NCBI GenBank assembly: GCA_964396145.1
Contig: CAYNEE010000002.1
Span: forward strand, 1 to 59,943
DNA: 59,943 nt
From: an uncultured Gammaproteobacteria bacterium
Lineage (GTDB): Bacteria; Patescibacteriota; Microgenomatia; UBA12405
Direction: 5' to 3'
Shown: positions 8,283 through 38,869 of the stretch, piece by piece
Layout of the letters: every line of letters begins with the position of its first letter
Position numbering within the stretch: the first letter of the stretch is position 1
The notes under the pieces: model-generated
What the model was told of the DNA's origin: nothing
Databases searched by the model: none
Seen by the model: only the letters and a program-made list of their open reading frames with translations
Position numbers and translations under genes: made by a program

Positions 8283-8307
8283 ATTAAGGGGTAGATTTAT
8301 TTTCCCT

Positions 8308-15476: not shown

Positions 15477-17423
15477 ATGTACTCTCTTTCCGACTTTGAC
15501 CTGGAAACTCTCTCCCCCCAAAAGCTTGGCGAAATTTTAGTCGATGCCAAAAAAGCCTACTATACCACCGGTCGACCCCTCATGGATGACCATACCTACG
15601 ATACCCTAGAAGCTGTCTTAAAGAAAAAATCACCCTACCATCGGCTCTTTTCCAAAGTCGGTCACGATAATTTCGACACCGGCTGGGAGAAAAAGAGTCA
15701 TTCTATACCCATGGGTTCCCAAAACAAAGTCAGCACCTACAAAGATCTCATCCACTATTTTGAATTAAAAAACAAATCTTCCCCCTTTCTTCAAAGGGGG
15801 ACTAGAGGGGGATTTTTGGTCCAACCTAAATGTGACGGCATCTCTTTGGAAATCAGATATGAAAACGGTCATCTGCTGGATGCCATTACCCGGGGTGACG
15901 GCCACACCGGTGATGTCATTACCCAGAATGTCGTCAAAATGAAACAAGTAGTTTTAACCACCGCCAAAAAATTCAACGGTTCGGTCCGCTGCGAAATCCT
16001 CGTCACCAAAAAAGACTTTGTTGAGTTAAACAAATTGGTAAAAAATGAGGCAGGGCTTTACTCCAACCCCCGTAACGCCGCCTCCGGCCTCTCCCAACGT
16101 CTCGACGGTCTTTATTCTGAATTTTGTACTTTATATGCTACTGATATTTCTGGAAATTTTTCTACCGAGTCAGAAAAAATTTCTCTTCTAAAAAACCTCG
16201 GCTTCACCTCCGTTGAATCACATCTCTGTCAAAGTTTTGAAGACATCGAAAAAATTTATCAGAATTTTTTACGCCGGGATAGGGGAGTCTATCCCTATGA
16301 CATCGACGGCCTGGTCGTCAAAATCAATAATCTTGACATTGCCACGAGTCTTGGACAAAAAAATGGTCGCCCCAAATACCAGGTTGCCTACAAGTTTCCC
16401 GCCGATTCTAACCAAAGTGTCATTAAAAACATCACCTGGCAGGTTGGCCCCCTGGGTTCCATCACTCCGGTAGCCGAAGTTGAACCGGTCGAGATTTCCG
16501 GAGCCATTATCAACTTTGCCTCTCTTGGTAATTATGACTTAGTCCTCAAAAAAAACCTAAATACTGGTGATATCATTGAAATCTCCCGTCGTGGCGATGT
16601 CATTCCCCATATTGAAAAAGTCATTACCAAAGTCAATGCTGGCACCACCCCCATTCCTACCCATTGCCCTGCCTGTAAGACCCCACTTCTTAAAGAAGAC
16701 AAATTTCTCCGTTGTCCAAACGGCCATCACTGCTTGCCTCAAATTTTAGGATCACTTCGGCTTTTTTGCGACAAGCTCAACATCCTTGGCCTTTCCGACA
16801 AGACTATCGAAAAGCTCTATCACTCCGGCAAACTAAAAAAACCCGGCGATTTTTACAAATTAAAAGTTGAAGATATCGCCAATCTCGACAATCTGGGAGA
16901 AAAATCAGCCAAAAATGTTCTCCATCAAATTGCCTCTAAAAAAACCCTCAGTCTTAAAGAGCTTTTTACCGCTGCCTCTATCCCTGATTTCTCAGCAGCC
17001 AGAATACAACAACTCATCACTGCCGGTTTTAACACCCCCGAAAAACTATTAGACATTACCCTAAACGACATTCTCTCCCAAAAAGGTTTTCAAAAAACTT
17101 TAGCCCAAAAAATAATTAATGGTATAAATTTTAGGAAAGAATGGATTATATCGATACTTATCAATACGTCTTTAATTACTCCTAAATCCCACAAAGGAAC
17201 TTTGTCCGGTCTGACTTTTGCCATTACCGGCACTCTCTCCCGGTCCCGTAACTCAGTCATCAAAGAGATTGAAAATGCGGGTGGCAAATTTCACTCCGCC
17301 GTCAGTAAAAACACCTCTTATCTAATTACCAATGACACCACCACTAATTCTTCTAAATTAACTGACGCCCAAAAAAATGGAGTTAAAATTATCAACGAAA
17401 ATGATTTTCAAAAATTACTCTGA
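15477..17423 (+). CDS. ligA: NAD-dependent DNA ligase
   Basis: It has the adenylation motif KCDGISLE (KxDG), TRGDG, OB and Zn-finger regions (CPAC...C..G.HC), HhH motifs and a C-terminal BRCT. The start is moved to ATG 15477 because the track's TTG at 15456 lies inside a TATAAT box (15465-15470). Confidence 0.9.
   Translation: MYSLSDFDLETLSPQKLGEILVDAKKAYYTTGRPLMDDHTYDTLEAVLKKKSPYHRLFSKVGHDNFDTGWEKKSHSIPMGSQNKVSTYKDLIHYFELKNKSSPFLQRGTRGGFLVQPKCDGISLEIRYENGHLLDAITRGDGHTGDVITQNVVKMKQVVLTTAKKFNGSVRCEILVTKKDFVELNKLVKNEAGLYSNPRNAASGLSQRLDGLYSEFCTLYATDISGNFSTESEKISLLKNLGFTSVESHLCQSFEDIEKIYQNFLRRDRGVYPYDIDGLVVKINNLDIATSLGQKNGRPKYQVAYKFPADSNQSVIKNITWQVGPLGSITPVAEVEPVEISGAIINFASLGNYDLVLKKNLNTGDIIEISRRGDVIPHIEKVITKVNAGTTPIPTHCPACKTPLLKEDKFLRCPNGHHCLPQILGSLRLFCDKLNILGLSDKTIEKLYHSGKLKKPGDFYKLKVEDIANLDNLGEKSAKNVLHQIASKKTLSLKELFTAASIPDFSAARIQQLITAGFNTPEKLLDITLNDILSQKGFQKTLAQKIINGINFRKEWIISILINTSLITPKSHKGTLSGLTFAITGTLSRSRNSVIKEIENAGGKFHSAVSKNTSYLITNDTTTNSSKLTDAQKNGVKIINENDFQKLL
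15781..15817 (+). repeat. G-rich hairpin repeat, copy 4, in frame inside ligA
   Basis: CCCCCTTT-CTTC-AAAGGGGG-ACTAGAGGGGGATTTTT. The perfect 8-bp hairpin encodes SPFLQRGTRGGF just upstream of the KxDG motif. Confidence 0.65.
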
Positions 17424-17802
17424 GTCGGCCAGCACCCTGGCTAAAAAAATTCTTGACAGTTTTCCTGGTGCCAACACCGTCGTCTGCCTCGATTCCTCCC
17501 ACCCCCATTTAGATCAATACCGACAAAAATTATCAGACTTTTTAAAAGAACACCGACAGTCTTCCTCCGACTCCAATTTACTGATAATAAGTGATCCGGG
17601 ACTGAATCAGTTTACTCATTTTGAAAAACCAATTTTAGAGCTTCGCAAACTTTATCCTCGGCTAAAAATTGTCATCGCTTTGCCGGTAGTTTCTGAATCA
17701 CAAAAAGCTCAGTTCCAGTCTCTTTGTGATAGTCTAATTTATCTTCATAGTGAACCACTCTTTTTTAGTCCTAACCAATTTTATGAACAACAAAATTTTT
17801 AG
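17401..17802 (+). CDS. Hypothetical protein
   Basis: The ORF overlaps the ligA 3' end, and its start is uncertain. I recognise no motifs. Confidence 0.4.
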   Translation: MIFKNYSESASTLAKKILDSFPGANTVVCLDSSHPHLDQYRQKLSDFLKEHRQSSSDSNLLIISDPGLNQFTHFEKPILELRKLYPRLKIVIALPVVSESQKAQFQSLCDSLIYLHSEPLFFSPNQFYEQQNF

Positions 17803-17898
17803 CATTATTAGTATCAGACTGCTAATAAATATATCAAATTAATTAAAACCTATTTTTAGACAAAACTTATATATAAATCAATTACAAAATATATCAAA

Positions 17899-18426
17899 AT
17901 GAAATTATTTTTCGGACTAGGCAATCCCGGTAAAAAATATCAATCAACCCGACACAATTTGGGTCAAAAAATTCTTTTGCAATTTGCTCAAAAAAACTCT
18001 CTTGTTCTTTCTGAAAAAAACAAGTTAAAAAGCAGGGTAGGGGAGTGGTCAAAAAATATTTTTGCCCACTCCAATGGCTTCATGAATGAGTCGGGAAATC
18101 CTCTAAATTTAGTTTCTCGTTTTTACAAAATTTCTCCAAAAAATATTTATGTTATCCATGATGATTTGGACCTCCCGGTAGGGGAGTGGCGGCTCCAATT
18201 TGACCGTGGTCCCGCCGGTCACAACGGTATTAAATCAATTATTGAAAACTTAGGCTCTCAGACCTTTTGGCGTCTAAGAATTGGTATTGGTCATCCCCAA
18301 AACCCAAATATCTCTGTCGAAGACTATGTCCTCCAGCCATTTACCGCCACTGAAAAAAAACTTATCGATAAAGTAACCCCCGAAATTCTTGATAAAATAG
18401 ATGAGATTTCCAGATCGGGCCTTTAG
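17899..18426 (+). CDS. pth: Peptidyl-tRNA hydrolase
   Basis: FGLGNPGKKYQSTRHNLG and GPAGHNGIKS motifs. The last 10 nt overlap tRNA-Ala. Confidence 0.9.
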   Translation: MKLFFGLGNPGKKYQSTRHNLGQKILLQFAQKNSLVLSEKNKLKSRVGEWSKNIFAHSNGFMNESGNPLNLVSRFYKISPKNIYVIHDDLDLPVGEWRLQFDRGPAGHNGIKSIIENLGSQTFWRLRIGIGHPQNPNISVEDYVLQPFTATEKKLIDKVTPEILDKIDEISRSGL

Positions 18427-18488
18427 CTTATCTGGTAGAGCATAGCATTCGCATTGCTAAGAGGGCGGTTCGAGTCCGCCAAGGTCCA
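18417..18488 (+). tRNA. tRNA-Ala (anticodon CGC)
   Basis: Cloverleaf folded by hand: acceptor GGGCCTT/AAGGTCC with the G3:U70 alanine identity pair, anticodon loop TTCGCAT, and T arm GGCGG-TTCGAGT-CCGCC. No CCA is encoded. Confidence 0.85.
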
Positions 18489-18489
18489 C

Positions 18490-18999
18490 TTACTTTAACC
18501 TTTCCTTGATTGATTCCGCCACTATTTTAGCGTTATCCACATTCACCTGGTTGTTCAACCTAGCACTTATCAGGTAATTGACCTCGCCCACTTTAATACT
18601 CAAGATATTACCAGCCGCATTCCAGTAGGCCACATCCCCCAAATCAGTAAATTTTTGATATTTTCTTTCCTCGTAACGGGCATAATCTTCTGCTCGAACT
18701 TTATCTTTTACCAAAAGCAGCATGTTTTCAGATTTATAAACCGGCTCACTATCACCATAACTACAACGATTGTCGCTCGAATCATTATCTTTTATAACTG
18801 TTTTCAAAAAAGCTTGAGCCACCTCTGGAGACAAAATATCACAAGCCTTACCACTGCCGTTATAAGGCAGTTTTTTGACCTCTATTTTCTTAACTACGTC
18901 TTCACTCTCTACCTTCGGCGCTGAATTTTTGTTTCTTAAAAAGAAAATGGCTACCAATAACAGTACAACTGCCATGACTGCAATTATTTTTTTACTCAT
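18490..18999 (-). CDS. Hypothetical membrane-anchored or secreted protein
   Basis: 169 aa with the N-terminal signal anchor KKIIAVMAVVLLLVAIFFL. Confidence 0.5.
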   Translation of the reverse strand: MSKKIIAVMAVVLLLVAIFFLRNKNSAPKVESEDVVKKIEVKKLPYNGSGKACDILSPEVAQAFLKTVIKDNDSSDNRCSYGDSEPVYKSENMLLLVKDKVRAEDYARYEERKYQKFTDLGDVAYWNAAGNILSIKVGEVNYLISARLNNQVNVDNAKIVAESIKERLK

Positions 19000-19333
19000 T
19001 ACTTATTTTACGCTAAACTATCTCATAGTAACACCATCCAAACCAACTCCTATCTCTGAAACTTTAACCCTCTTTAAGGAAAATTTTGAAAAGAGAAAAA
19101 AGTACGTCAAAAATGAATACCAAGCCTATGGCCTAGAACTAGCCGATGAACTGGATGATTGGGATCATAAATCTCTTTATATTCGCCTCGCCCAAAAAGA
19201 GGACCGCAAAATGCTTGAGACTGCCCGCTATTTTGTCAAAGACCATATCCCCGGAGCCGTTAAAAGTAAAGCCGCTCTCTTTATGTGGAAACTAAAACAA
19301 CTTCGTTTAGAAAAAGCCAGAAGTAAGCTATAA
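18974..19333 (+). CDS. Hypothetical protein (start uncertain)
   Basis: The C-terminal two-thirds looks coding (YGLELADELDDWDHKSLYIRLAQK...). The 5' part of the track ORF overlaps the divergent gene and is probably not translated. Confidence 0.35.
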   Translation: MTAIIFLLITYFTLNYLIVTPSKPTPISETLTLFKENFEKRKKYVKNEYQAYGLELADELDDWDHKSLYIRLAQKEDRKMLETARYFVKDHIPGAVKSKAALFMWKLKQLRLEKARSKL

Positions 19334-19343
19334 TGTACCCTGG

Positions 19344-20399
19344 ATGAAATTTTGGAAGTCATATAAAAAATTTATAATCTGGGGACTACTTCTAATCTTA
19401 GTTCTATTTTTCGTCTATGGTCGGATTCAAGCTCAAAAATTTAAAAACCCAGCCATTTTAAATCCCTCCAAAGACAAAATTGTTAAACCCGAGTATAAAA
19501 CCATCAAAAACGAACTTAAGCTTTCCGGTTCTATTGATGCTCGTGACAAAGCCGAGGTCCGTTTTCAGACCGGTGGCCGCCTCGCCTGGGTCGGCGTCAA
19601 AGAAGGGGATAGAGTCAGAAAATGGCAAAGTCTCGCCTCTCTCGACCGTCAGGAGTTAAAAAAACAATTAGAAATTTCTTTTAATAACTATCGTACCCAA
19701 CTCTCCCAATTTGACGACACTCAGGATAAATATAAAGAAGAAAAGGAAGCCTTGATTCTAACTGACGAAATGAAACGAATTTTGGCCCGTTCCCAATTTG
19801 CCCTCAACAACTCCGTCATCAATTATGAACTCAATGATCTGGCTATTAAATACGCCACCATTTGGAGTCCCATTAATGGAATTGTAGTCAATGTTGAGCA
19901 GCCTCATGCCGGTGTCAATATCACTCCCGCCTCCGCCTCCTTTACCATTATTGATCCCAGTTCAGTCTATTTTAAATCGGAAATTGATGAAACTGATGTC
20001 CCGCTCATTCATGTCGGTCAAGCTGCCACTATCGAAATTGATTCCTACCCCAATGACAATTTGAATTCCCAGATTACCGATATTTCCTTTTTGCCTGTCG
20101 CAGGCCAAAGCTCTACTGTTTACAAAATCGATTTTAAATTACCGGTTAGTAACAGTGACCTCAAATACCGTCTCGGTATGGAAGGGGATGCAACTTTAGT
20201 CCTACACCAAGAGGAAAATGCCCTCACTATTCCCATTGACGCTCTCAATCAGGAGGACGATAAAAATTTTATCTGGCTTAAAACCAGTGAGGGTAAATTA
20301 GAAAAAAAATATGTGACAATCGGCGTTGAAAACGACGATGAGGTTCAGATTACAGAAGGTCTCAGTCCAGATGAACAAATCGTTATCAAAAAACTCTAA
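19344..20399 (+). CDS. Efflux periplasmic adaptor (HlyD/MacA-like membrane fusion protein)
   Basis: 351 aa with an N-terminal TM helix, a coiled-coil hairpin and lipoyl/beta-barrel-like segments. It lies directly upstream of the MacB-type ABC genes. Confidence 0.7.
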   Translation: MKFWKSYKKFIIWGLLLILVLFFVYGRIQAQKFKNPAILNPSKDKIVKPEYKTIKNELKLSGSIDARDKAEVRFQTGGRLAWVGVKEGDRVRKWQSLASLDRQELKKQLEISFNNYRTQLSQFDDTQDKYKEEKEALILTDEMKRILARSQFALNNSVINYELNDLAIKYATIWSPINGIVVNVEQPHAGVNITPASASFTIIDPSSVYFKSEIDETDVPLIHVGQAATIEIDSYPNDNLNSQITDISFLPVAGQSSTVYKIDFKLPVSNSDLKYRLGMEGDATLVLHQEENALTIPIDALNQEDDKNFIWLKTSEGKLEKKYVTIGVENDDEVQITEGLSPDEQIVIKKL

Positions 20400-21072
20400 A
20401 ACAGTTGTTTTAGAACTGGTTAATGTTGTTAAAAGCTACCGCACCGGCGAAACTGTTTTTAATGCCCTGGATGGTGTTTCTTTGCAAATTCGCCAAGGCG
20501 AATTTGTCTCCATTACCGGTCCCAGCGGTTCCGGTAAATCTACTCTCATGCACATCATTGGCCTCTTGGATAATCCAAGCTCAGGTCAAGTTTTACTTGA
20601 AGGTAAGGATGTTTCTCACTTAGATGAAAACCAACTGGCCCGTCTTCGCAATGTCACCCTCGGTTTTGTTTTTCAACAATTTAATCTTCTTGCCAAAACT
20701 TCGTCTCTCGAAAACGTCACTCTGCCTCTTTTGTATTCCGACATTCCTAAATCCGAACACCAGGAACAGGCTTTAGCTATGCTTAAAAAAGTCGGTCTTT
20801 CCGACAAGCTCAAAAACACTCCCGCCCAGCTCTCAGGTGGTCAGCAACAGCGTGTTGCTATTGCCCGAGCTTTGGTCAACAATCCCAAAATTGTTTTAGC
20901 CGATGAGCCCACCGGTAATCTTGATTCTAAATCCGGAACTGAAGTTATTGAGTTAATTCAGCAACTTCATCGCGAGGGTCATACTATTGTCCTGGTCACT
21001 CACGATATGAATCTCGCTAAACTCGCCGAACGCATTATCCTTATTAAAGACGGTTTAATTCAAAAAATATGA
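20371..21072 (+). CDS. ABC transporter ATP-binding protein (MacB/LolD-like)
   Basis: Walker A GPSGSGKST, signature LSGGQQQRVAIARA and Walker B VLADEPT. The start is taken at MNKSLSKN. Confidence 0.9.
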   Translation: MNKSLSKNSKTVVLELVNVVKSYRTGETVFNALDGVSLQIRQGEFVSITGPSGSGKSTLMHIIGLLDNPSSGQVLLEGKDVSHLDENQLARLRNVTLGFVFQQFNLLAKTSSLENVTLPLLYSDIPKSEHQEQALAMLKKVGLSDKLKNTPAQLSGGQQQRVAIARALVNNPKIVLADEPTGNLDSKSGTEVIELIQQLHREGHTIVLVTHDMNLAKLAERIILIKDGLIQKI

Positions 21073-22292
21073 GATTAAAACCCTCTCTTGAAGACCTTAT
21101 TAATTCTTCCTTTCGTTCGGTTTTAAAAAATAAAAGCCGGACTATCCTAACCTCTTTAGGTGTAATTATCGGAGTAACTTCAGTAATTTTGTTAACTTCC
21201 ATCGGTACAGGTTTAAAAAAATATGTCAGTGACCAGTTTGAGTCTCTTGGGAGTAATACTTTATTTGTCGCCCCAGGAAAAGTTTTTAACGAACAGGGTG
21301 GTTTCAATGGCCAGGAATCCAGTCTCATCTCGGTTTCCTTTACTGAAAAAGACATTTCCCGTCTTAAAAAAGATTTAAAAGGTTCTATCATCTTACCTAC
21401 CAAAAGTACCAGTGCCGAAGTCAAGTCAAAGGATAAAAAGAAAAATGCCGCTACCATCGTCGGTACTACTTACCAGTACGGTCCCCATAATAACGCCATT
21501 CCCTCCACTGGCAACGGCCGTTGGTTTACCAAAGAAGAAGATGACAAAGGCGAAGCTGTTGCCATTCTGGGACCAAAAATGGCTAATGATTTATTTCCCA
21601 GTGGCAATGCTTTAGGTAAAAAAATTATCATTGGCAGTAAAAACGTTAAAATTATCGGCATAGGAGATAGTCGTGGCAGTAGTATGGGTGGTCCCAATTT
21701 AGACGAATATATTTTTGTTCCTTACAATTTGGCAGTAGATCTTGCCGGCAACAACAAGGTCCAGGAAATTATGGTCAAAGCCCCGAGTGAAAAAGAGGTC
21801 GGTAACACCAAACAAAAAATTATTGATGTTTTGTCTGAAAATTACGACAAAGACGATTTTTCCGTTTTTGATTCAGCCCAACTTTTAACCTCCATCAATA
21901 GTATTATTAGCACCCTAACTATTGCCCTTACTGGTATTGCCGCCATTTCTTTGGTGGTTGGAGGTATCGGCATTATGAACATAATGCTCGTCACTGTCTC
22001 GGAGCGTACCCGCGAAATTGGTCTTCGTAAAGCCATCGGCGCCTACCCTCGGGCTATTCTTTTACAGTTTCTTTTTGAAGCAGTTATTCTCTCTGGAATT
22101 GGCGGTATTATCGGGATTATTTTAGGAACACTCGGTACTTTTGGCATCAACAAATTTTTCCCAGCCCAGGTCACCCCCGGCTCTATTTTAATTGCCTTTG
22201 GTGTAGCTTTCATTGTCGGCATTATTTTCGGAGTTGCCCCCGCCCGTAAAGCCAGCAAACTTTCACCTATTGAAGCTCTGCGCTATGAATAA
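21069..22292 (+). CDS. ABC transporter permease (FtsX/MacB family)
   Basis: 407 aa with an N-terminal TM helix, a large extracytoplasmic domain and a C-terminal FtsX-like 3-TM block (ERTREIGLRKAIGA). Confidence 0.85.
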   Translation: MRLKPSLEDLINSSFRSVLKNKSRTILTSLGVIIGVTSVILLTSIGTGLKKYVSDQFESLGSNTLFVAPGKVFNEQGGFNGQESSLISVSFTEKDISRLKKDLKGSIILPTKSTSAEVKSKDKKKNAATIVGTTYQYGPHNNAIPSTGNGRWFTKEEDDKGEAVAILGPKMANDLFPSGNALGKKIIIGSKNVKIIGIGDSRGSSMGGPNLDEYIFVPYNLAVDLAGNNKVQEIMVKAPSEKEVGNTKQKIIDVLSENYDKDDFSVFDSAQLLTSINSIISTLTIALTGIAAISLVVGGIGIMNIMLVTVSERTREIGLRKAIGAYPRAILLQFLFEAVILSGIGGIIGIILGTLGTFGINKFFPAQVTPGSILIAFGVAFIVGIIFGVAPARKASKLSPIEALRYE

Positions 22293-22309
22293 TCTGCTAA
22301 TATAAATTA

Positions 22310-23367: not shown

Positions 23368-23579
23368 TGAGCCTTATGACTCAAAAAGTTTTTCTTGATC
23401 AGGATAAATGCATCGGTTGCAACACTTGTCCTTTGATTGACCCTGACACTTTCGAAATGGATACTTCTATTTATAAGGCCCGGGTTAAAAAACAACCCGA
23501 AACTATCACTAAAAACGTCAATTCAGCCATAACTTCCTGTCCAGTCGGCGCTATTTCGACCATTGAAGAGGTCAAGTAA
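23367..23579 (+). CDS. Small ferredoxin (single-cluster type)
   Basis: 70 aa with CIGCNTC...C near the N-terminus and a distal CP motif. Confidence 0.65.
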   Translation: MSLMTQKVFLDQDKCIGCNTCPLIDPDTFEMDTSIYKARVKKQPETITKNVNSAITSCPVGAISTIEEVK

Positions 23580-23597
23580 CTGTGCTTTAATGTCTAC

Positions 23598-24581: not shown

Positions 24582-25114
24582 TGAAACTAAATTCTCAACA
24601 ACTTCGCCAAAGCAGAGTAGGGGAGTCACAAAAAAAACAGCGCCTCATCAAGCGTCAACCTCTGGTTTTGGTTTTAGATAATGTTTTAGACACTTACAAT
24701 ATCGGCTCTTTTTTTCGCCTAGCTGATGCTTTGGGCGCCCAAAAAATTTATCTTTGTGGTCCCGCCGTCACCCCACCTAATCTTAAAATCCACCGAGCCT
24801 CGGTTGGTACTTGGAAATGGATACCGTGGCAACATTATAATTCCACTAGTAACTGTCTTAAGCAACTCAAAAAAGACGGTTATAAAATCATCGCCTGTGA
24901 ACAGGGGAAAAATACTATTGACTATCGCCACTATCAATACCCTTTTCCTCTTGCTATCGTCGCTGGTAGCGAAGTTTCCGGAATTTCCAAAGATACTCTT
25001 AATCTCTGCGATCAAATTATTGAAATCCCTATGTATGGCGTCAATATTTCCCTAAATGTTCTTATAGCCACCGCTCTCATTGCCTTTAAGTCTCTAGAAA
25101 AAAATAAAAAATAG
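24581..25114 (+). CDS. SpoU/TrmH family RNA 2'-O-methyltransferase
   Basis: NIGSFFRLADALGA, AIVAGSEVSGIS and IPMYGVNISLNV motifs. Confidence 0.75.
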   Translation: MKLNSQQLRQSRVGESQKKQRLIKRQPLVLVLDNVLDTYNIGSFFRLADALGAQKIYLCGPAVTPPNLKIHRASVGTWKWIPWQHYNSTSNCLKQLKKDGYKIIACEQGKNTIDYRHYQYPFPLAIVAGSEVSGISKDTLNLCDQIIEIPMYGVNISLNVLIATALIAFKSLEKNKK

Positions 25115-27203: not shown

Positions 27204-27205
27204 CC

Positions 27206-29860: not shown

Positions 29861-30053
29861 GATATTTATATATCAAAATTATAGGATAATCGTATAATAT
29901 TTTTGATTATTAGCAGAGTAGGGGAGTGAATGCTAGGTAGCTTAGAAAATTCAAAAATGACCTAAAATAGGGAAAAAACGTCCATAAGCTAGGCTAGGGG
30001 AGTCGTCTTTATGTATTTTGCCATTAGATTGGCCAAAAGCCTCCAATTATAGG

Positions 30054-31010
30054 CTAGGACTCCTTTTTATCTGAACCTGGATGATTACCTAAATGGTATT
30101 TTTCATGAACTTCACGAAGTCTCGCATCAGTTACATGAGTATAGATTTGGGTGGTAGCAATATTTTTATGTCCCAAAATTTCCTGAACCGAACGAAGGTC
30201 AGCTCCGGCCCGCAGTAAATCTGTCGCCATCGAATGGCGGAGAGTATGAGGTGTTGCTGCTACCGGCAATCTGGCAAGCCTTACATAATGCTTAACCATT
30301 CTCTCAATCGATCTGGCCGTCAGTCTCATTTTTACCGTCTCCTGGATTAATTCCTTTTTTCCTCCATAGCGGATAAACAATGCTTCGTCCTTATCCGTCC
30401 GGCTTTTTAAGTATCTGTCAATATATTCGGCCGCCCGCATCGAAATAAAAACCACCCTGGCTTTGCCGCCCTTACCAATTACACCAAATTCACGTGTCTT
30501 TAGGTTAATTTGTTCTCTATCCAATCTAACTAGCTCCGATACCCGCAAGCCCGTAGAAAACAGCATTTCCAAAATTGCCCTATCTCTTAATCCAGTTTTA
30601 GTGGAAAGTAAGGGTTGATTTAAAAGTCTTTCCAACTGCTCGGCGTTTAAAAATTTTAAGGAATGATCTTTATTTTTAGGAACATCAATCTTTTCCGGCT
30701 GCATAACCTCATAATCGTTTTTAATCAACCATTTTAAAAAGGACCGAAGAGCAATTACATAATAGCCCTGAGTTACTATTTTCATTTCACCGTTAGTTCC
30801 GGGCAATCTGGATAAGTATAACCTGAAGTCTCTAACTGCCTCGGGATTTATGTCTGAAACCTTTGCTGTCTCAATTCCTTTACTCTGAAAGTACTTTTCT
30901 AAAACTGAGAGGTAATGCTGATAATTTCTGACCGTCAGCTTAGAGCAATTTTTTTCCACCTCCAAATGTTCTAAAAATCGCCTGGTAGCCATACTCAAAT
31001 CCAAATCCAT
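30054..31010 (-). CDS. xerC: Tyrosine recombinase, XerC/XerD family
   Basis: An N-terminal SAM-like core-binding domain and a C-terminal HTLRHSMATDLL...LGHKNIATTQIYTHV (R-H-R-Y catalytic signature). The start is ambiguous: GTG 31025, ATG 31010 or ATG 30992. Confidence 0.85.
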   Translation of the reverse strand: MDLDLSMATRRFLEHLEVEKNCSKLTVRNYQHYLSVLEKYFQSKGIETAKVSDINPEAVRDFRLYLSRLPGTNGEMKIVTQGYYVIALRSFLKWLIKNDYEVMQPEKIDVPKNKDHSLKFLNAEQLERLLNQPLLSTKTGLRDRAILEMLFSTGLRVSELVRLDREQINLKTREFGVIGKGGKARVVFISMRAAEYIDRYLKSRTDKDEALFIRYGGKKELIQETVKMRLTARSIERMVKHYVRLARLPVAATPHTLRHSMATDLLRAGADLRSVQEILGHKNIATTQIYTHVTDARLREVHEKYHLGNHPGSDKKES

Positions 31011-31658
31011 AGTTAATCGTAGCACAGAAAGTTCATAAACGTTCGTTTACGGGCCTCTGGTGAGGTCATCTATAAATTATGCCTATTTATAGGTATAATT
31101 TTAAGAATAACAAAAAATTAGATAAAAAATAGGCTGGGGGAGTAGGCTTAGCTTTTTAAAGCTGGCCCTTGTCCGGGTAGCCAGTCTTAATAGGCGAGTA
31201 AAAAAGACATTTATTTAAAACCCGTTTTAATAAAAACTAAAAATAAATGATTAATAATTGAAAATTGAAAATTGTAGATCCAGCCACTCCCCTCCACTTC
31301 TCTTTTGAATAACGTCGTAAAAGATACATTGTGCGACATATTAAAATTGACTTCCCCTCTATAGGGGACAACTATCTTTTTCTTTGTCCTATTCTAGTTT
31401 CTGGTTTCTTGTTTTTAATTTTCTATTTATACTTTTATGCCCCTCCTCCCAGGCACTTCTCACCGGCAAAAGTGATCTATTGCTGCTAATCCAAGTTTTC
31501 CACACAGACTATATCATACTATATCACTACCCTATCCTATAATAATCATGAAAATTATAGGATATATCGTGAAAATCCTTCCCCCACTTCCCTACTCGGC
31601 TCGACGTAACCTTTTTTTTGCGAAGTCAACCTTAAAAACTGTTTTTATTCTACTTTCA

Positions 31659-32444
31659 TCAGCCCCATCTGGTGGTTAAAATCATGGCAAGTATCGCTGC
31701 CACCGCCATATAACTAAAAGTCCTGACCACTCCCCTAAAAAGTCTATCTCTAATTTCTGCCTGTATTAAGGCAGAAATTATATATATAACTACTACCAGG
31801 TAGACTGAACCTCTAAAAATTCCTACAGGCCAAAAAGAGAGAATGCCTATAAGCTCTGCCAAGATCACGCTGGGTACAATTATATACGGCCACCTCCCCT
31901 TTTCCTTACCGTCATCGGGTAATTCTATGGCAATATTCCAGTAACTATTGGCAAATAACATCAACCCTATTAAAAAAGCTACCAACATATTTCCCCAAAA
32001 AGGCAGTTTAAACGATAACAGTGAATCAAAAATAAAGAAAGCAGTCAGTAGCATAATAATCAGACTTACCGTGTATGCCGCCCGGTAAAGTGGCACTGTC
32101 TTGTAGCCAATTGCTACCAAAAAAACATTTTTTATCAAAAACATCGTATGCAAAATTAGACCGAAAAATAAGCTAGATCCAACAATATATATCGGTGTAC
32201 TCGGCAACAGTGAAGCAAACAACCCAAAACCCACCGTCCACAAGCAGGGCAGTAAAATCACCATAATTTTAGTATCAATAGTCCCTTCAAAAATTATCCC
32301 CAACCCAAACCAAAACAGAAAAGCTACTATCGCCAAAAGAACTAGCAATCCATAATAACTGGATTCTACCGGTAAAGATAAATACATCGCGAAAGCTCCC
32401 CCACCGATTAAAGCCGAAATAAAATGTTTAAATCTTTTGTTCAT
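31659..32444 (-). CDS. Hypothetical polytopic membrane protein
   Basis: About 260 aa, mostly hydrophobic helices. The start is taken at MNKRFKHF. Confidence 0.5.
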   Translation of the reverse strand: MNKRFKHFISALIGGGAFAMYLSLPVESSYYGLLVLLAIVAFLFWFGLGIIFEGTIDTKIMVILLPCLWTVGFGLFASLLPSTPIYIVGSSLFFGLILHTMFLIKNVFLVAIGYKTVPLYRAAYTVSLIIMLLTAFFIFDSLLSFKLPFWGNMLVAFLIGLMLFANSYWNIAIELPDDGKEKGRWPYIIVPSVILAELIGILSFWPVGIFRGSVYLVVVIYIISALIQAEIRDRLFRGVVRTFSYMAVAAILAMILTTRWG

Positions 32445-33144
32445 AGTCAAAACCAGCAAACACATTAACCACATCTTCATTTTCCTCTAATTCTTCAATC
32501 AGATCCAAAATTTTTCCCAATTCTTCCTCTGAATTTAATTTTATCGGATTCATAGCCTTATATACTAGCCCGGAAGTCTCTATGGCTATTCCCCTGTCAA
32601 CCATTACCGATTTCACCCTGTTTAAATCTTCGGCTTTAGTTAAAATACTTTTACCCTCGATTTCCCTCGCTCCCTCATCAATCAAAGCTAGCTCCGCTGC
32701 CTCGTCTGGCTCTGTTTCTAGCTCTATCTCCCCTACTCTCTCAAACATAAAAGCTACACTACCACTTTCACCTAAATTTCCGCCATAATTTCTCAAAATT
32801 AGCTTGACTTCACTCAAAATCCGGTTTTTATTATCCGTCTCAAACTCAATCATCATCGGTACCCCAAAGGGACCAAAAGCCTCAAACAGACCACTGTTTA
32901 GATTATTCTTTCTCTCTTCAAATCTTTTTAGAAGTCTTTCAATGTTCTCTTTAGGCATATTCACCTCTCTTGATTTCTCAATTGCCGCCCGCAAAGCCGC
33001 ATTCGACTCGGGATTGGTATTGCCTCCCCCTTCTCTAATTGCCGTTAGTATATCCTTGGAAACTTTGGTAAAAGCTTCACTTCTTTTTTTATCCTGAGCC
33101 CCCTTCCGATTTTTAATATTGGCCCATTTAGAATGACCTGACAT
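32428..33144 (-). CDS. yebC: YebC/PmpR family DNA-binding regulator
   Basis: N-terminus MSGHSKWANIKNRKGAQDKKRSEAFTK. Confidence 0.9.
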   Translation of the reverse strand: MSGHSKWANIKNRKGAQDKKRSEAFTKVSKDILTAIREGGGNTNPESNAALRAAIEKSREVNMPKENIERLLKRFEERKNNLNSGLFEAFGPFGVPMMIEFETDNKNRILSEVKLILRNYGGNLGESGSVAFMFERVGEIELETEPDEAAELALIDEGAREIEGKSILTKAEDLNRVKSVMVDRGIAIETSGLVYKAMNPIKLNSEEELGKILDLIEELEENEDVVNVFAGFDYEQKI

Positions 33145-33934
33145 AACTATTATATTTTATCATCGAGGCATAGTTTTTACCCGGATTAATGGTTAATTCC
33201 TCGAGTAATAAAGTTGGATTAGTTACCCGGGAACAACCAAACATTTTTGCCAAAAAATCCGCATAATTTTCAGTTAATTTATTCCCTTGAGCTACCACTT
33301 CACAGCCTTCCTTGATTGTTTCATTTTCCACTGCCACCACGTTATAGCCTTGCCAGTTTAAACGATCAGCCACAAATGCTCCCAAAGCATTTTCCCCGCT
33401 ACTATTTTTAACTGACACCTTCAAACCCTTCTGTTGTAGTTCTCCTAGGGCAAAATCCCGAGGTAGAATATCATCTAATTCTTCCTTTTTTACCAACAAA
33501 TTAGTATTTATTACCTCTGTTTTAAACAGCCAATTATTTTGTTGCCACCAAAAACGAAAACTCTCTGAGGGTCCCAAAAAACGCCATAAGCCAGAGCTTC
33601 TCCATGCCTCAACTTTTGATAAAACCAATATTTTTTCCGGGTAAATTCCAAAATTATAAAAGAACATCTTTCTGACCAGATCCTCCTCCTTACCCTGATC
33701 AAATATCTTTTCCACCTTATTGGCCGGATACCAACCCATTCCTCCTGGAAACCACAGCTCCACTTCCGATGCCACTTTTAACAAGTTAACCATCCCCCGT
33801 AGAGGTGAAATTGAAACCACTCCCACCCCCTCTGGAGACACTACTCCGACCACCCTGTCTTCTTCTCGGAAACCCTTTTTAATTACAAAAAATAGAGATA
33901 TAAAAATTACCAATGCTATCAATATTTTCTTCAT
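33128..33934 (-). CDS. Membrane-anchored LytR_C-domain protein
   Basis: It has an N-terminal TM helix. The C-terminal LKVSVKNSSGENALGAFVADRLNWQGYNV resembles the LytR C-terminal domain. Confidence 0.45.
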   Translation of the reverse strand: MKKILIALVIFISLFFVIKKGFREEDRVVGVVSPEGVGVVSISPLRGMVNLLKVASEVELWFPGGMGWYPANKVEKIFDQGKEEDLVRKMFFYNFGIYPEKILVLSKVEAWRSSGLWRFLGPSESFRFWWQQNNWLFKTEVINTNLLVKKEELDDILPRDFALGELQQKGLKVSVKNSSGENALGAFVADRLNWQGYNVVAVENETIKEGCEVVAQGNKLTENYADFLAKMFGCSRVTNPTLLLEELTINPGKNYASMIKYNSYVRSF

Positions 33935-34596
33935 AATTGTACAATAATTTTTTTCAAATCAGAGGCCAACTCCGTCTCAAAATTTTTGTCTAAAAATGAC
34001 AATTTTTTAGCCTGCAAAAAGGGTCTTTCCAACCCCAAAAGTCGATGTCCGCCATAAATTAAATCTCCAGCCAAGGGCCATCCAAGATAACTAAAATGAA
34101 CCCTAATCTGGTGTGTCCGTCCCGTTTTTAAATCCACCTCCACTAAACTATAAATTTTGTTTTCATGTTTGTATTTTTCCAAAACTTTAAAATGAGTTTC
34201 CGCTTCTTTCCCATTTTCTACCACAGCAAAACGTCCGAATTGATATTTAGACCTGTTTATCGGCACTTTAATTACCCCATTTTGTGGCAAATCCCCTTCT
34301 ATCAGCGCCCAGTAAACTTTCTTTATCTGTCTCTCTTTAAACATTTTCATTATTTTTTCCCGAAAATCGGCATTCAGTGCTATCACCATCAATCCCGAAG
34401 TTCCCTTGTCCAGTCGATGGACAATCCCCTGTCGGGGCAGTTTATTATCGCCCCATTTTTTCTCCAACCACTCTTCCAAACTACCTTTAACCTTCCGTCC
34501 TTCACGGGTGCAAACCACTCCAGCTTTTTTGTCCAGAATCAACATATCTTTGTTTTTGTATATTATTTTTGCCTTGCTTTCCATAAAAAATACCAT
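33931..34596 (-). CDS. RluA-family pseudouridine synthase (no S4 domain)
   Basis: HRLDKGTSGLMVIA catalytic Asp motif and the RTHQIRVH motif. Confidence 0.85.
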   Translation of the reverse strand: MVFFMESKAKIIYKNKDMLILDKKAGVVCTREGRKVKGSLEEWLEKKWGDNKLPRQGIVHRLDKGTSGLMVIALNADFREKIMKMFKERQIKKVYWALIEGDLPQNGVIKVPINRSKYQFGRFAVVENGKEAETHFKVLEKYKHENKIYSLVEVDLKTGRTHQIRVHFSYLGWPLAGDLIYGGHRLLGLERPFLQAKKLSFLDKNFETELASDLKKIIVQL

Positions 34597-34865
34597 AAAA
34601 CCTGAATTACTCCCGCAGCTATCAGGTAATCATTTAAATTATTATAAAGCCTGGTCCCCGGTATCTGCCAGTAATCTCTGACCCCTCCCAACCACATTCT
34701 TTCATATAAATTCAACCACCCACCAACAAATATTAAAAGCCAACCCCAGGCTGCCTTTTGTTTAAACCATAACCACAAGCAAATCACCAATAAAATCACT
34801 TGTAACCACTCTATTCCCAAAAAATTCATCCCAAAACTTGCTCCTTGATTAGTAATTATTCTCAT
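34563..34865 (-). CDS. lspA: Miniature signal peptidase II-like protein
   Basis: 100 aa with NQGASFGM, GGWLNLYER and NNLNDYLIAAG, which resemble LspA blocks. The N-terminal ~50 aa typical of LspA are absent, and the first catalytic Asp position reads Glu. Confidence 0.5.
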   Translation of the reverse strand: MRIITNQGASFGMNFLGIEWLQVILLVICLWLWFKQKAAWGWLLIFVGGWLNLYERMWLGGVRDYWQIPGTRLYNNLNDYLIAAGVIQVLWYFLWKARQK

Positions 34866-35188
34866 TTTTCATCTTCCCGAGCACATTTTACACAAGTGGT
34901 TGTTTCTGGATTTACTGACAACCGGTCTGTGTCAATCATTTGTCCGCATTTTTCACAAGTTCCGTATTTACCTAATTTAAGTCTGGTTAAAGCTTTTCTG
35001 ATCTGGATGACTTGTTTTTGAATAAAATTAGCCTTGACCTGATTTTCAAAATGTTCTACTTGATCATCAGCATCATCCTCTATTTCCTTGACCTCTTTTA
35101 GCTCCTTCTCATTTCTTTTGAGATCCATCAACTTCTTTTCCAAAAATTTTTGGATGCCAACGGTCAGTCCTTTAGGAAAACTTATCAT
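34862..35188 (-). CDS. DksA/TraR-type C4 zinc-finger protein
   Basis: A coiled-coil N-terminus followed by CEKCGQ...CVKCA. Confidence 0.6.
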   Translation of the reverse strand: MISFPKGLTVGIQKFLEKKLMDLKRNEKELKEVKEIEDDADDQVEHFENQVKANFIQKQVIQIRKALTRLKLGKYGTCEKCGQMIDTDRLSVNPETTTCVKCAREDEK

Positions 35189-35765
35189 ATCCCAGCATAA
35201 ACAATCCACCCACAAAAAGCAAACTCATCACACCCCACCAACTTTGATAAATTATACCTAAAAATACGAAAAAACAAATCATAAACCAAAAAAACAAAAA
35301 CCCTTTTCGACCACTTTTAAACCATAAAAAAGACCGATATTTCTGCCTAACCGGTAAGGTTAATAACGCCGCCGCCAATATCGCCGCCGGCAGTCGCCAG
35401 TTTTGTTGAGCCCAGGCGAACATTACCGTCAAAAACGATACACTCGGGATAGCATCCTCCAAAAAGGACCATAACTTCCAACCCTTATCCTTGGCAATCA
35501 GCACCGCAAATAAGAGCCACAAAATCAACCCACCCCAGATCAACGATTCGTTTATTTTCCAAAACTCAATCCAGGCACCCCCATTTCCCTGCCATTTACC
35601 CCAATTGACCAAACCATAACTCAACCGAGATCCAATTAAAAACAAAAACAAAGCCACCCAATTAAACGCCACCACATCCTCATTTGGATAATTTTCCTTA
35701 AAGGTCCGCCAACTAATATACAAATATCCAAAAATAGCGAATATTAAAATTAATACCTGATTCAT
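35172..35765 (-). CDS. Polytopic membrane protein, possibly prolipoprotein diacylglyceryl transferase-like
   Basis: The start is moved to MNQVLILIF, because the track ORF's first 15 codons are tRNA-Leu sequence. It has hydrophobic helices with Gly/Trp-rich loops. Being two genes upstream of the lspA-like gene in the same operon (the dksA-like gene lies between) is the main support for the Lgt call. Confidence 0.35.
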   Translation of the reverse strand: MNQVLILIFAIFGYLYISWRTFKENYPNEDVVAFNWVALFLFLIGSRLSYGLVNWGKWQGNGGAWIEFWKINESLIWGGLILWLLFAVLIAKDKGWKLWSFLEDAIPSVSFLTVMFAWAQQNWRLPAAILAAALLTLPVRQKYRSFLWFKSGRKGFLFFWFMICFFVFLGIIYQSWWGVMSLLFVGGLFMLGYDKFS

Positions 35766-35851
35766 GGTGCCGAAGGTGGGAATCGAACCCACATGATGTT
35801 GCCACCACACGATTTTGAGTCGTGCGCGTCTACCAATTCCGCCACATCGGC
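35765..35851 (-). tRNA. tRNA-Leu (anticodon CAA), CCA encoded
   Basis: The reverse complement reads GCCGATGTGGCGGAATTGGTAGACGCGCACGACTCAAAATCGTGTGGTGGCAACATCATGTGGGTTCGATTCCCACCTTCGGCACCA. It has a long variable arm and the anticodon loop CTCAAAA. Confidence 0.9.
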
Positions 35852-35880
35852 TATTTTCGTATTATCTCACAAAAAACACC

Positions 35881-37191
35881 TTAGTTTTTCTTTTCCACGT
35901 CAAAGAAACTTACCTGTTTACCGTTAAAGTAGAGATTAAACTGCCCGGTAGGACCGTTACGGTGCTTTTCAATTGCGCATGTCACAATCTCTTTGACTTC
36001 CTCATCCTCTCGGTGTAAAAACATAACTACGTCGGCATCCTGCTCGATACTGCCTGATTCCCGTAAATCTGACAACCTCGGCTTTCCTCCCCTTGATTCC
36101 ATTTGTCTGTTAAGCTGGGCCGCCGCAATCACTGGCACCCTTAATTCTCTCGCTAAATTCTTTAAGCCTTGAGAAATTTCTGAAACCTCCTGAACCCGAT
36201 TGTCCCGGGTATAACCATGCATCAGTTGCAGATAATCAACCACCACAAATTTTATCCCCTTATCCGATTGTAAACGCCTGGCTTTGGTCCGTAGCTCCGT
36301 TACTGTCAACCCCGGAGTATCATCAATATATAGAGGTGCCTCGGCCAAAACTCCCATAGCTTCCGATAAAGATGTAAAATCATCATCGGAAAGTTGGCCT
36401 GTTTTTAGCTTCCAAGCATCAATCAAACCCTGGCGTACCAGCAGTCTATCCACCAATTCTTCCTTACTCATTTCCAGTGAAAAAACCACTGTCGGCAATT
36501 TTTCTTCTACGGCTACATGCCGGGCGATATTGAGTAAAAATGCCGTTTTTCCCACCCCTGGTCTCGCTGCTAAAATCAGCAAGTTACTATCCTGCATCCC
36601 TGCTAGCATCGAATCCATTTGTTTAAATCCAGTTGGTAAACCTCTCAGTCCGCTTCCACGTTTTTGCAATTCATCTAAACGGTCAAAAGAAGCCGTTAGT
36701 ACTTCTCTAATCGACGAAGGTACTGATTTCATATGACGTTGGGATAGAGCATAAACTTCCTGTTCCGCCATGTCTAGAAGTTCATCAGCCGGAATTGCTT
36801 CATCAAAAGCCTTTTCCGAAATCCGTCCCGCCGCCGAAATTAACTCCCGTTTTGCCGATAATGCTTTTATAATTCTACCGTAGCTTTCCACATTAGCCGA
36901 TGTTGGCACCTCTGCAGCTAGTTTTGATAAAAAGGCCTTACCTCCAATGGTTTTAAGCAGTTTTTTCTCCTTGAGCTTTCCGGCCACCGTCACCATATCA
37001 ATCGGACTTCGGTTCTCATAGAGCTCCATCATGGATTCATAAATTAAGCCATAGTTCCGGTTATAAAAATGTTCTGGTCGCAAAAATTCCGATACCCCCA
37101 GAACCGCATCATTATCAATTAGAATAGATCCTAAAACTGATATTTCTGCCTCTTCAAAAGCGGGCGGCAGTTTTATATTTGACTCTTTAAT
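35881..37191 (-). CDS. dnaB: Replicative DNA helicase
   Basis: Walker A GVGKT and the C-terminal RecA-like motifs are present. The conserved N-terminal segment LPPAFEEAEISVLGSILIDNDA lies upstream of the track's TTG start. I propose an ATT start at 37189-37191, preceded by AAGGAGGT and a 6-nt spacer. Confidence 0.85.
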   Translation of the reverse strand: MKESNIKLPPAFEEAEISVLGSILIDNDAVLGVSEFLRPEHFYNRNYGLIYESMMELYENRSPIDMVTVAGKLKEKKLLKTIGGKAFLSKLAAEVPTSANVESYGRIIKALSAKRELISAAGRISEKAFDEAIPADELLDMAEQEVYALSQRHMKSVPSSIREVLTASFDRLDELQKRGSGLRGLPTGFKQMDSMLAGMQDSNLLILAARPGVGKTAFLLNIARHVAVEEKLPTVVFSLEMSKEELVDRLLVRQGLIDAWKLKTGQLSDDDFTSLSEAMGVLAEAPLYIDDTPGLTVTELRTKARRLQSDKGIKFVVVDYLQLMHGYTRDNRVQEVSEISQGLKNLARELRVPVIAAAQLNRQMESRGGKPRLSDLRESGSIEQDADVVMFLHREDEEVKEIVTCAIEKHRNGPTGQFNLYFNGKQVSFFDVEKKN

Positions 37192-37724
37192 AGGATTACC
37201 TCCTTCCCTTCAGGTAAATTATCTCTGTCTACCTTTAGAGACTCTATGGCTTCTAAATTTTCTTTATCAAATTCATCCATAAATTTGTGGTATTCCTCTT
37301 CATTCTCTTCAAAATCCACCGGGATAATATAATTTGCTGCCGTACTTTTAGCCAGTTCTATGGATTTTTCATTCATTGAAATCAATAGCACGTCTGCCTC
37401 TTCAAGCTTTTCTTTTTTCTTTTCACTCAAGTCTCCTTCTACCCTCCCGGTCAATAAAACCTTGACCCTGTCAATGTTTAGAGCATACATCCCATTTGTC
37501 CCGTTAATCTCTACTCCCCCAATTTCATATTCTCCCGCTCCAACTATAATTACCCTTTCCTCTTCTTGGCCTAATTTTATAAAATTTGCCTCTTTTTTGG
37601 TAAAAATTACAATTCTTGATGACATAGATTTTTTCTCCAAATCATCTTTTTCGGGGTTAATCCAGACACTTTCTTTCTTACCCTGTAAATATATTTTATT
37701 ATTCCCAAAATATCTAATTTCCAT
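37173..37724 (-). CDS. Hypothetical protein
   Basis: 183-aa ORF that is acidic and Lys-rich, with no motif I recognise. Confidence 0.45.
   Translation of the reverse strand: MEIRYFGNNKIYLQGKKESVWINPEKDDLEKKSMSSRIVIFTKKEANFIKLGQEEERVIIVGAGEYEIGGVEINGTNGMYALNIDRVKVLLTGRVEGDLSEKKKEKLEEADVLLISMNEKSIELAKSTAANYIIPVDFEENEEEYHKFMDEFDKENLEAIESLKVDRDNLPEGKEVILLKSQI
37189..37205 (-). promoter_or_regulatory. Shine-Dalgarno AAGGAGGT, 6-nt spacer and ATT putative initiation codon of dnaB
   Basis: The reverse complement of 37205..37189 is AAGGAGGTAATCCTATT. No ATG, GTG or TTG is in frame between the upstream stop (37210-37212) and TTG 37081-37083. Confidence 0.55.
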
Positions 37725-37730
37725 AGCCCT

Positions 37731-38210
37731 ATGATAACATTAAAGCAATCTATGATTAAGACTTTGCTTCTGACCGTTTTTTTTGGACTTACCTTGGGCC
37801 TGGGTCTTAGCGGTACCATTTACTATCTCAAACAAAATCAAAAAAACCGTCAAAGTCTATCAACTGTCATTCCCACTCTCAATCCTGATTCTAGCAACAC
37901 CGCTGTCTCTGTTACCCCCATTCCCAACAATCCCGGCTCTTCCGTCCCCCTAAATATTACCTCCCATCAAAATTATGACCTGGTTTCTGCCGCCAAAATC
38001 ACCCTCACTGGCACCACTACCCCAAAAAGCCTTTTAGTCATCACCACACCCAGCCAAAATTATCATTTTTTTGCCGATGACAGCGGAAAATTTTCTCAAA
38101 ACATCACTCTTGATTCCGGCTTTAATACTTTAAATATAAAATCGATTACCCCCGATAATCAGGAAACCCAACTCACTTATTATTTAACCTTTTCTACAGT
38201 CAAAATATAA
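37731..38210 (+). CDS. Hypothetical membrane-anchored surface protein
   Basis: It has an N-terminal TM helix followed by a Ser/Thr/Pro-rich segment. Confidence 0.5.
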   Translation: MITLKQSMIKTLLLTVFFGLTLGLGLSGTIYYLKQNQKNRQSLSTVIPTLNPDSSNTAVSVTPIPNNPGSSVPLNITSHQNYDLVSAAKITLTGTTTPKSLLVITTPSQNYHFFADDSGKFSQNITLDSGFNTLNIKSITPDNQETQLTYYLTFSTVKI

Positions 38211-38869
38211 TGAAAAAAATCTTTCTTGTTTTCCTCACTACCTCTTATTTTTTCATGGCGACTCCCCTACTCGCCCAAACTCCTTCCCAAACTTTAGGAG
38301 AAAACATCGAAGATTTACGAGAAAATCTCCAACAAAAAGTTCGTGAAAAATTAGCCGAAATCACCGATACTGTTACCCCCAATCCTCGTAAAGCCTACCC
38401 TGGCACCATTGTCGAAATTAACGCCGATAAAATTAAAATCAACTCCCAAGACCAGGAAATGGAATTTACTCTTGCTTCTGACACCGTTTATTTAAACCAA
38501 AAACAGGCTAAAATTAAACGCGAAGACCTTAAATCAGGACAAAATATTCTACTTTTAAGCCTCAATCAAGACACTATAAATTACGCCAAAAGAATCCTGT
38601 TAGTCGACCCTAAAGACCTTCAAAACGATAAAAAAACCACCTTTGGTACCATCGCCGATATCTCTACTACTGGTTCTGTCCTAACTCTTCTTAGTGTCAA
38701 CAACAAAGACGAAAAAATGCAAATCAGAATTGATCCAAAAACTGAAATTAGGAGCAAAGACAATAAAGTTCTCAAATTATCAGACCTTAAAAAAGATCAA
38801 AAAATTATTTGTATTTCAGGTCCTTTGGACAAACAATCCTATCCCGCTCTCCGTCTCATTACCCTATAA
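38210..38869 (+). CDS. Hypothetical secreted protein
   Basis: Signal peptide MKKIFLVFLTTSYFFMATPLLAQ. TAATG overlap with the upstream gene. Confidence 0.5.
   Translation: MKKIFLVFLTTSYFFMATPLLAQTPSQTLGENIEDLRENLQQKVREKLAEITDTVTPNPRKAYPGTIVEINADKIKINSQDQEMEFTLASDTVYLNQKQAKIKREDLKSGQNILLLSLNQDTINYAKRILLVDPKDLQNDKKTTFGTIADISTTGSVLTLLSVNNKDEKMQIRIDPKTEIRSKDNKVLKLSDLKKDQKIICISGPLDKQSYPALRLITL

Follow-up and report, generated by a model that had tools for sequence, protein, structure and literature searches.

The window examined here is a stretch of 59,943 nucleotides (G000:C2:1-59943; contig CAYNEE010000002.1) that forms part of a 76-kb contig in a metagenome-assembled genome (MAG) of 628 kb and 21 contigs with a completeness of 93.6% (G000), from an uncultured member of the Shapirobacteria. 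It contains a G-rich 9-mer, TAGGGGAGT, and a dif-like site next to a gene for an Xer-family tyrosine recombinase. It is probable that TAGGGGAGT is the local form of a shorter word, AGGGGAKT (K = G or T; RRNAGGGGAKT with its upstream purines), which is directed toward dif in the manner of the FtsK-orienting polar sequences (KOPS) and for which the gamma domain of FtsK (FtsK-gamma) is the predicted reader. The statistical hallmarks of KOPS and of the SpoIIIE recognition sequences (SRS) of Bacillus subtilis are present, together with an encoded FtsK gamma domain, and the word is thus taken as the KOPS of this lineage. In the proposed mechanism, the winged-helix gamma domain of the septal translocase FtsK would prefer the word as its loading site, DNA would next be pumped by FtsK toward dif, guided from both chromosome arms, and Xer recombination at dif would resolve chromosome dimers at division.

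In the window, TAGGGGAGT occurs eight times as against 0.53 copies expected (100 dinucleotide shuffles, none of which reached eight), and it is the highest-ranked 9-mer by third-order Markov z-score, which bears out the strong over-representation described in the initial annotation of this DNA. The seven coordinates listed in that annotation are all correct, but a copy at 31729-31737 on the minus strand had been overlooked. A whole-genome count, which had been proposed as a check, gives 15 copies in the 628-kb MAG versus approximately 3-5.5 expected, a number above background; since eight of these 15 fall in a single 22-kb stretch (between 16 and 38 kb of the window's contig), the enrichment of the 9-mer is mostly local, and the window appeared enriched because it spans dif, the region of highest word density. 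The octamer amounts to a few dozen copies in the 0.63 Mb of G000. The orientation bias reported earlier is real; however, it is not a bias toward the plus strand but a strand switch, in that all window copies of TAGGGGAGT are on the plus strand to the left of approximately 31.3 kb and on the minus strand to the right of it. With orientation defined relative to the dif-like site, AGGGGAKT points toward dif in 12 of its 13 copies in the window.

The same polarity is found in the relatives G015 (contig C3 of 534 kb, and C7) and G034 (contig C1 of 949 kb, from a genome of ~1.2 Mb; 400 kb was sampled for the polarity counts). The ratio of AGGGGAKT copies pointing toward dif to those pointing away is 7:1 on the gyrA-side arm and 8:0 on the orfX-side arm of the window's own contig, 53:7 and 15:0, respectively, in G015 (68:7 in sum on the 534-kb contig), and 25:0 and 12:0 in G034. 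In G015, whose dif-like site lies at 127.9 kb of the 534-kb contig, the plus:minus counts to the left and right of the site are 7:0 and 5:25 for AGGGGAGT and 6:0 and 4:23 for TAGGGGAG; on the window's 76-kb contig, those of AGGGGAG are 7:1 and 0:13. In a wider comparison of 8-kb loci around a 24-bp dif core, covering 119 species with one genome per species, AGGGGAKT points toward dif in 218 cases and away in 15, and the copies situated past the first kilobase divide 130:0. An unbiased scan of all octamers (at most one N; skew of at least 0.85) always returned TAGGGGAG, AGGGGAGT or AGGGGANT as the top octamer of the gyrA-side arm in the three genomes, and AGGGGAGT ranks highest on the left side of the 119 loci (96:2 versus 6.1 expected, z = 36).

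The density of the word is similar on both arms and varies with distance from the site, from approximately one copy per 2.5-4 kb at less than 10 kb from dif to one per 8-11 kb on the long contigs (for the octamer, approximately one per 5-17 kb chromosome-wide), with a maximum within 2 kb of dif, where positions in the spacers on either side are conserved. A second flip of polarity is located 1.5-8 kb past dnaA (G015:C7, G034:C1 and G000:C8), where the GC skew also steps up by ~0.15.

A dif site is approximately 28 bp long, consists of two 11-bp imperfect inverted arms around a centre of 6-8 bp, and is present once per chromosome. The 28-bp block at 31312-31339 (ACGTCGTAAAA-GATACA-TTGTGCGACAT; 24-bp core at 31314-31337), located in a 633-bp spacer beside xer, is an 11-6-11 imperfect palindrome whose arms agree at 8 of their 11 positions in this genome and at 9 of 11 in the species consensus, and it is accordingly regarded as a dif-like site, at which the Xer recombinase would be expected to act. 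In an alignment of the two spacers around xer that are free of open reading frames, taken from the window and seven relatives, this block is unchanged across the seven relatives whereas the flanking sequence is variable. Of 23 genomes of the genus, 21 have the core exactly once, among them all 13 that are of high quality, and the right arm is unique within G000. Read on the opposite strand, the site is ATGTCGCACAA TGTATC TTTTACGACGT, and dif of Escherichia coli is GGTGCGCATAA TGTATA TTATGTTAAAT (PMC3025954); the two share the 11-6-11 layout of the classical XerCD/dif system and a TGTAT(A/C) centre, with identity at 17 of 28 positions and at five of the six in the centre. At the dif-like site the polar word, the gene orientation and the level of GC skew all change, and the gene orientations converge on it; on the 949-kb contig of G034, dnaA is 752 kb from the core.

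The exact 24-bp core was found in more than 119 species of the candidate phyla radiation (CPR), again counted as one genome per species, and such conservation across a superphylum distinguishes it from the known dif modules. By title, the core-bearing records belong to Shapiro-, Beckwith-, Woese-, Nomura-, Kaiser- and Moranbacteria, Parcubacteria and Saccharibacteria. As a separate observation, the exact CPR core is also carried by many MAG records whose titles read “uncultured Gammaproteobacteria,” “Bdellovibrionales,” “Methanoperedens” or “Dormiibacterota” (L058, L059, L066, L073 and others); they have low GC and strand disparity, and look like mislabelled or contaminated bins.

The Xer-family gene at 30054-31025 on the minus strand begins 287 bp from the dif-like site and encodes a protein of 323 aa with a Phage_integrase domain (Pfam, 148 bits) and an N-terminal SAM-like domain; its NCBIfam scores are 240 bits for XerC, 237 for XerD and 220.3 for XerA. 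An xer gene adjoins the site in 69 of the 119 species, at a median distance of 328 bp. Adjacency of xer to its site is a hallmark of the XerS/difSL and XerH/difH modules (PMC5357621), and the position of the recombinase gene within ~300 bp of the site resembles these; by contrast, the protein found here is of the size and type of XerC/D/A, and a second Xer paralogue, conserved in the genus, is encoded far from the site.

Base composition, codon usage or a conserved peptide (VGE/RGV) might yield such a distribution as a mere by-product, the word then having no function as DNA, although the evidence makes this most improbable. One strand is G-rich along entire contigs in this genus, so composition alone predicts a G-rich word on that strand everywhere. 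The orfX-side arm agrees with such a prediction, since the count there is close to that given by G-rich composition, and three of the eight window copies of TAGGGGAGT do encode V-G-E. On the gyrA-side arm, however, the word lies on the C-rich strand at 10-80 times its expected count (z of 10-36). The 168 permutations of AGGGGAGT average 2.4 copies toward dif and 8.35 away on that arm, so that the opposite strand is favoured by the composition, and AGGGGAGT itself (25:5) and TAGGGGAG (23:4) give the two highest toward-dif counts among the 168. In genes that oppose the direction of their arm (plus-strand genes on the minus-polar arm), the word still tracks the arm, with the 7-mer at 14:3 and the 8-mer at 6:0, and the 130:0 ratio past 1 kb in 119 species also speaks against a by-product. 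A conserved VGE peptide, which the initial annotation had named as a possible refutation of its motif, does not account for the copies, which occur in three reading frames as well as antisense and in spacers. Residue changes and motif changes are uncoupled in orthologues: in G015, orthologous positions keep the motif in part alongside Val-to-Ile and Val-to-Asp changes, and elsewhere it is lost through synonymous or conservative changes.

The individual copies in the window illustrate these points. On the plus strand, and thus toward dif, AGGGGATT is found in a spacer at 8278-8285, and TAGGGGAGT at 16280-16288 within ligA (frame D-R-G-V), at 18038-18046 and 18179-18187 within pth (both V-G-E-W), at 24618-24626 within the N-terminal coding region of the SpoU methyltransferase (V-G-E), and at 29919-29927 and 29995-30003 in the gyrA-xer spacer, the last being kept in four relatives. 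The context of the 18038 copy, GGGTAGGG, also matches the canonical KOPS, GGGNAGGG, and the 18179 copy is retained in G015 despite a Val-to-Ile change in the overlapping codon. On the minus strand, likewise toward dif, TAGGGGAGT lies at 31729-31737, where a minus-strand gene (31659-32480) encodes the C-terminus of a conserved membrane protein (frame F-R-G-V), and at 38261-38269, and AGGGGATT lies at 34290-34297, 34423-34430 and 55924-55931. Since the 38261 copy is antisense within a plus-strand gene (38210-38869), its orientation tracks the arm rather than the gene. Occurrence in both genes and spacers, as noted in the initial annotation, is evident from these contexts, and its SRVGE(W/S) translations of coding copies are correct. 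The one-mismatch copies it gave at 31135, 31286 and 31586 were verified as well. Two of them point toward dif from positions that are conserved, namely TGGGGGAGT at 31135-31143 on the plus strand (~170 bp to the left of dif, where the octamer is found at 100-200 bp in 32 species) and TAGGGAAGT at 31586-31594 on the minus strand (~250 bp to the right); the third is considered below.

The shared extended form AGCAGRGTAGGGGAGT is indeed present, at 18031, 24611 and 29912. In dispersed copies, however, information is limited to the octamer and to purines at -3 and -2 (RRNAGGGGAKT), so that the 16-mer is a trait of a few dif-proximal copies and was rejected as the true unit. A dispersed repeat family was rejected also, as a BLAST search of the spacers against the genome gave only the octamer or 16-mer and an unrelated GAAACYA repeat. 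The latter, a tandem heptamer (GAAACTAGAAACCAGAAAC...), is the most over-represented word of the genome (e.g., window 31392-31414, C8:6325, C8:10443 and C5:34815); GAAACTAGA occurs 50 times in the genome versus 4-10 expected, and the repeat is strand-skewed in G015, where GAAACTAG is distributed 15:2 on one arm.

Three further proposals of the initial annotation, a DNA-uptake signal, a binding site for the recombinase or a regulator, and a small mobile repeat element, derive some appeal from the encoded type IV pili, from the clustering of copies near xer and from the 16-mer common to three copies, but taken together they are scarcely credible. DNA uptake sequences occur approximately once per kb, far from the one per 5-17 kb of the word, and 15 9-mers and a few dozen octamers per 0.63 Mb, strictly polar around dif, do not resemble such a signal. 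Polarity centred on dif across hundreds of kilobases is untypical of an uptake signal and of an operator alike. A binding site for a recombinase or regulator does not account for copies that are spread over the chromosome and lie mostly within unrelated genes, and neither dispersed one-armed dif copies nor extra half-sites were found in G000. As for a repeat element, the dispersed copies share the octamer and two upstream purines and nothing more, with no conservation of the flanks.

The suggestion of a Chi-like or other strand-oriented recombination signal fared better, in that the word is indeed strand-oriented and tied to an Xer/dif locus, although it resembles KOPS rather than Chi. Chi sites, too, are over-represented, and on both arms they share the direction of replication; polarity by itself cannot tell a crossover hotspot read by a helicase-nuclease from KOPS. 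A candidate reader might be seen in a 1036-aa fusion of a UvrD/PcrA-type helicase with a C-terminal PD-(D/E)XK nuclease (Cas4/AddB-like), encoded at G000:C1:66637-69747, which is the sole RecB/AddA-like enzyme found in the genome. Its scores of 139-156 bits are, however, far below the AddA/RecB cut-offs of 696-861, no AddB partner was seen, RecC is absent, and no RecBCD or AddAB reader was found in this 93.6% complete genome. Moreover, the peak of density less than 2 kb from dif, with conserved spacer copies on both sides, is beyond what Chi requires, and the word overlaps the KOPS register RRNAGGG, while sister lineages carry GGGNAGGG itself. An identity as Chi is thus improbable, and a KOPS-like word directed at dif is the preferred interpretation.

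The genome of G000 encodes one FtsK, of 722 aa (G000:C1:45161-47329), with a gamma domain (PF09397, 92 bits) that aligns to the KOPS-bound gamma domain of Pseudomonas aeruginosa (2VE8/2VE9) and to that of E. coli (2J5P). The recognition helix reads GYARAARVLDQLE, versus GYNRAARIIEQME in E. coli; R1300 and E1306 are retained, E1303 is replaced by Asp and N1296 by Ala. In published KOPS, skew amounts to 0.8-0.9 over the genome and to at least 0.9 near dif, with one copy per 10-22 kb, and their prediction has been based on more than 90% skew near dif and densities of at least one per 40 kb near dif and one per 70 kb genome-wide (PMC3384302); the density and skew of the present word lie within the limits used for prediction. 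Like the KOPS of E. coli, P. aeruginosa and Vibrio cholerae (GGGNAGGG), it is a G-rich octamer with more than 85-90% of copies toward dif on both arms, at approximately one per 8-17 kb, denser near dif and distributed over genes and spacers, in a genome that encodes the winged helix of FtsK-gamma; RRNAGGGGAKT also overlaps the register GGNAGGG. It differs in that the information is shifted to the 3′ side (AGGGGAKT), in the Ala and Asp at positions 1296 and 1303, and in that the word is on the C-rich strand of one arm while the sign of the skew is constant.

The guiding word is known to vary among phyla, as in the SRS of B. subtilis (GAGAAGGG / GAGNAGGG, read by SpoIIIE) and the Lactococcus lactis KOPS GAAGAAG (PMC3384302), and the present case is similar in that polarity and density are kept although the word differs. 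Neither the E. coli KOPS nor the B. subtilis SRS serves as the polar word here. On the gyrA-side arm of the three genomes, GGGNAGGG is unskewed (9:9, 3:3 and 8:9), and GAGAAGGG has no toward-dif bias (1:3, 0:0 and 0:2), even though two window copies of the word read GAGTAGGG, which fits GAGNAGGG; the core differs. In CPR lineages that have the same dif without strand disparity, GNAGGGGA and the canonical GGGNAGGG (46:4) lead the ranking of polar octamers.

To our knowledge, no protein other than FtsK-gamma is known to read G-rich octamers that converge on dif. It is also conceivable, but unlikely, that the word is a dif-oriented architecture word read by another protein of segregation, condensation or replication, as the evidence from polarity is neutral with respect to the reading protein. 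Architecture imparting sequences (AIMS; Hendrickson and Lawrence, cited in PMC5993296) are octamers skewed to the terminus and commoner toward dif, and the present word likewise is skewed on both arms and rises in abundance toward dif; AIMS constitute a statistical class without a stated reader, whereas one word family dominates the ranking in the present genomes. An FtsK-gamma whose DNA-contact residues are largely kept is encoded and no alternative candidate was seen, which favours FtsK as the predicted reader.

Several points weigh against the interpretation as a KOPS-like word. All of the genomes are MAGs and are related to one another, and the counts overstate independence because copies within ~2 kb of dif are orthologous between genomes. 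Few copies are available for counting around dnaA. Although skew of the word reaches 100% on the orfX-side arm, its count there is approximately what G-rich composition would yield. The copy GAGGGGAGT (GGAGGGGAGTG) at 31286-31294 on the minus strand is the sole one in the window aimed away from dif, and yet it belongs to a conserved block; it lies exactly 20 bp to the left of the 24-bp core, with equal spacing in nine other species, and might serve in the loading or stopping of FtsK or as an accessory site. As the sign of the skew is constant in the genus, it is the word, the orientation of the genes, the step in skew and the location of dnaA that support the term “terminus.” The single-copy 16S rRNA gene of G034 (C1:684548-686097) opposes the gene and word polarity of its arm. 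Finally, FtsK-gamma is a predicted reader, assigned by comparison of sequences. With regard to the 16S rRNA gene, it may be added that it would meet a dnaA-derived fork head-on.

The relation of the word to strand composition deserves attention in its own right. A comparison of orientation with GC skew or replichore had been proposed; orientation does follow the chromosome arm, but skew does not serve as the reference, as GC and GC3 skew keep one sign across dif and along whole long contigs (534 kb and 870 kb), and only the level of skew steps, by ~0.1-0.15, at dif and near dnaA; two arms are nevertheless delimited by gene orientation and the polar word. Of 39 species, 35 have a downward step in GC skew at the site; a flip of sign from plus to minus occurs there in the six species with conventional skew, and a flip from minus to plus never occurs. 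A chromosome-wide G/C strand disparity has been described in other Microgenomates, with unidirectional replication proposed as its cause (Kadnikov et al., 2020, PMC7143001). The G-richness of one strand observed here matches that disparity and extends it to the Shapirobacteria. It is tempting to speculate, with slightly less than even confidence, that the AGGGGAKT/dif axis reveals an ordinary two-armed ori-dif architecture beneath the disparity, which would then arise not from unidirectional replication but from another strand-marking process, with the word selected against the mutational bias. If so, some process would mark one strand regardless of fork direction, and on one arm selection would maintain an FtsK-guiding word in the face of a strong mutational bias. 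Because the word marks the arms independently of skew, the proposal of unidirectional replication becomes testable.

The spacers around xer have some further features. The 633-bp spacer has origin-like traits, with gyrB and gyrA nearby, an AT-rich stretch and a DnaA-box look-alike, TTTTCCACA; a replication origin at this position was nevertheless rejected, since dnaA is on another contig (and 752 kb away in the relative) and the genes converge. A mobile or invertible element bounded by inverted copies around xer was also rejected, because the layout is that of a chromosomal locus conserved in all relatives. An Rfam search of both spacers found no non-coding RNA at the gathering threshold or at E-values up to 5. 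Approximately 160 bp to the right of dif, the block AGTTTTCCACACAGACTATATCA at 31494-31516 is invariant among the relatives and includes the look-alike TTTTCCACA; dnaA and the polarity switch at the origin are located elsewhere. Palindromic promoter-like boxes, TATAGGATA / TATCCTATAAT, occur in both spacers flanking xer, at 29866-29897 and 31530-31575, and are conserved in the relatives; TATAGGATA is found five times in the window versus 0.4 expected, and the boxes may be divergent promoters or operator sites of xer.

No paper was found in the literature that pairs KOPS, FtsK or dif with the CPR, that contains the dif core sequence, or that reports this site or word for the group. A defined dif site and a candidate word for guiding FtsK thus become available for Candidatus Shapirobacteria and, by extension, for a large part of the CPR/Patescibacteria. 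The 24-bp dif core can serve as a landmark when CPR genomes are oriented and finished and when dif-integrating elements are sought, and the word provides a composition-independent marker of chromosome arms where GC skew is uninformative. A G-rich word retained on the C-rich strand also represents a clean natural case of selection on signals of this kind.

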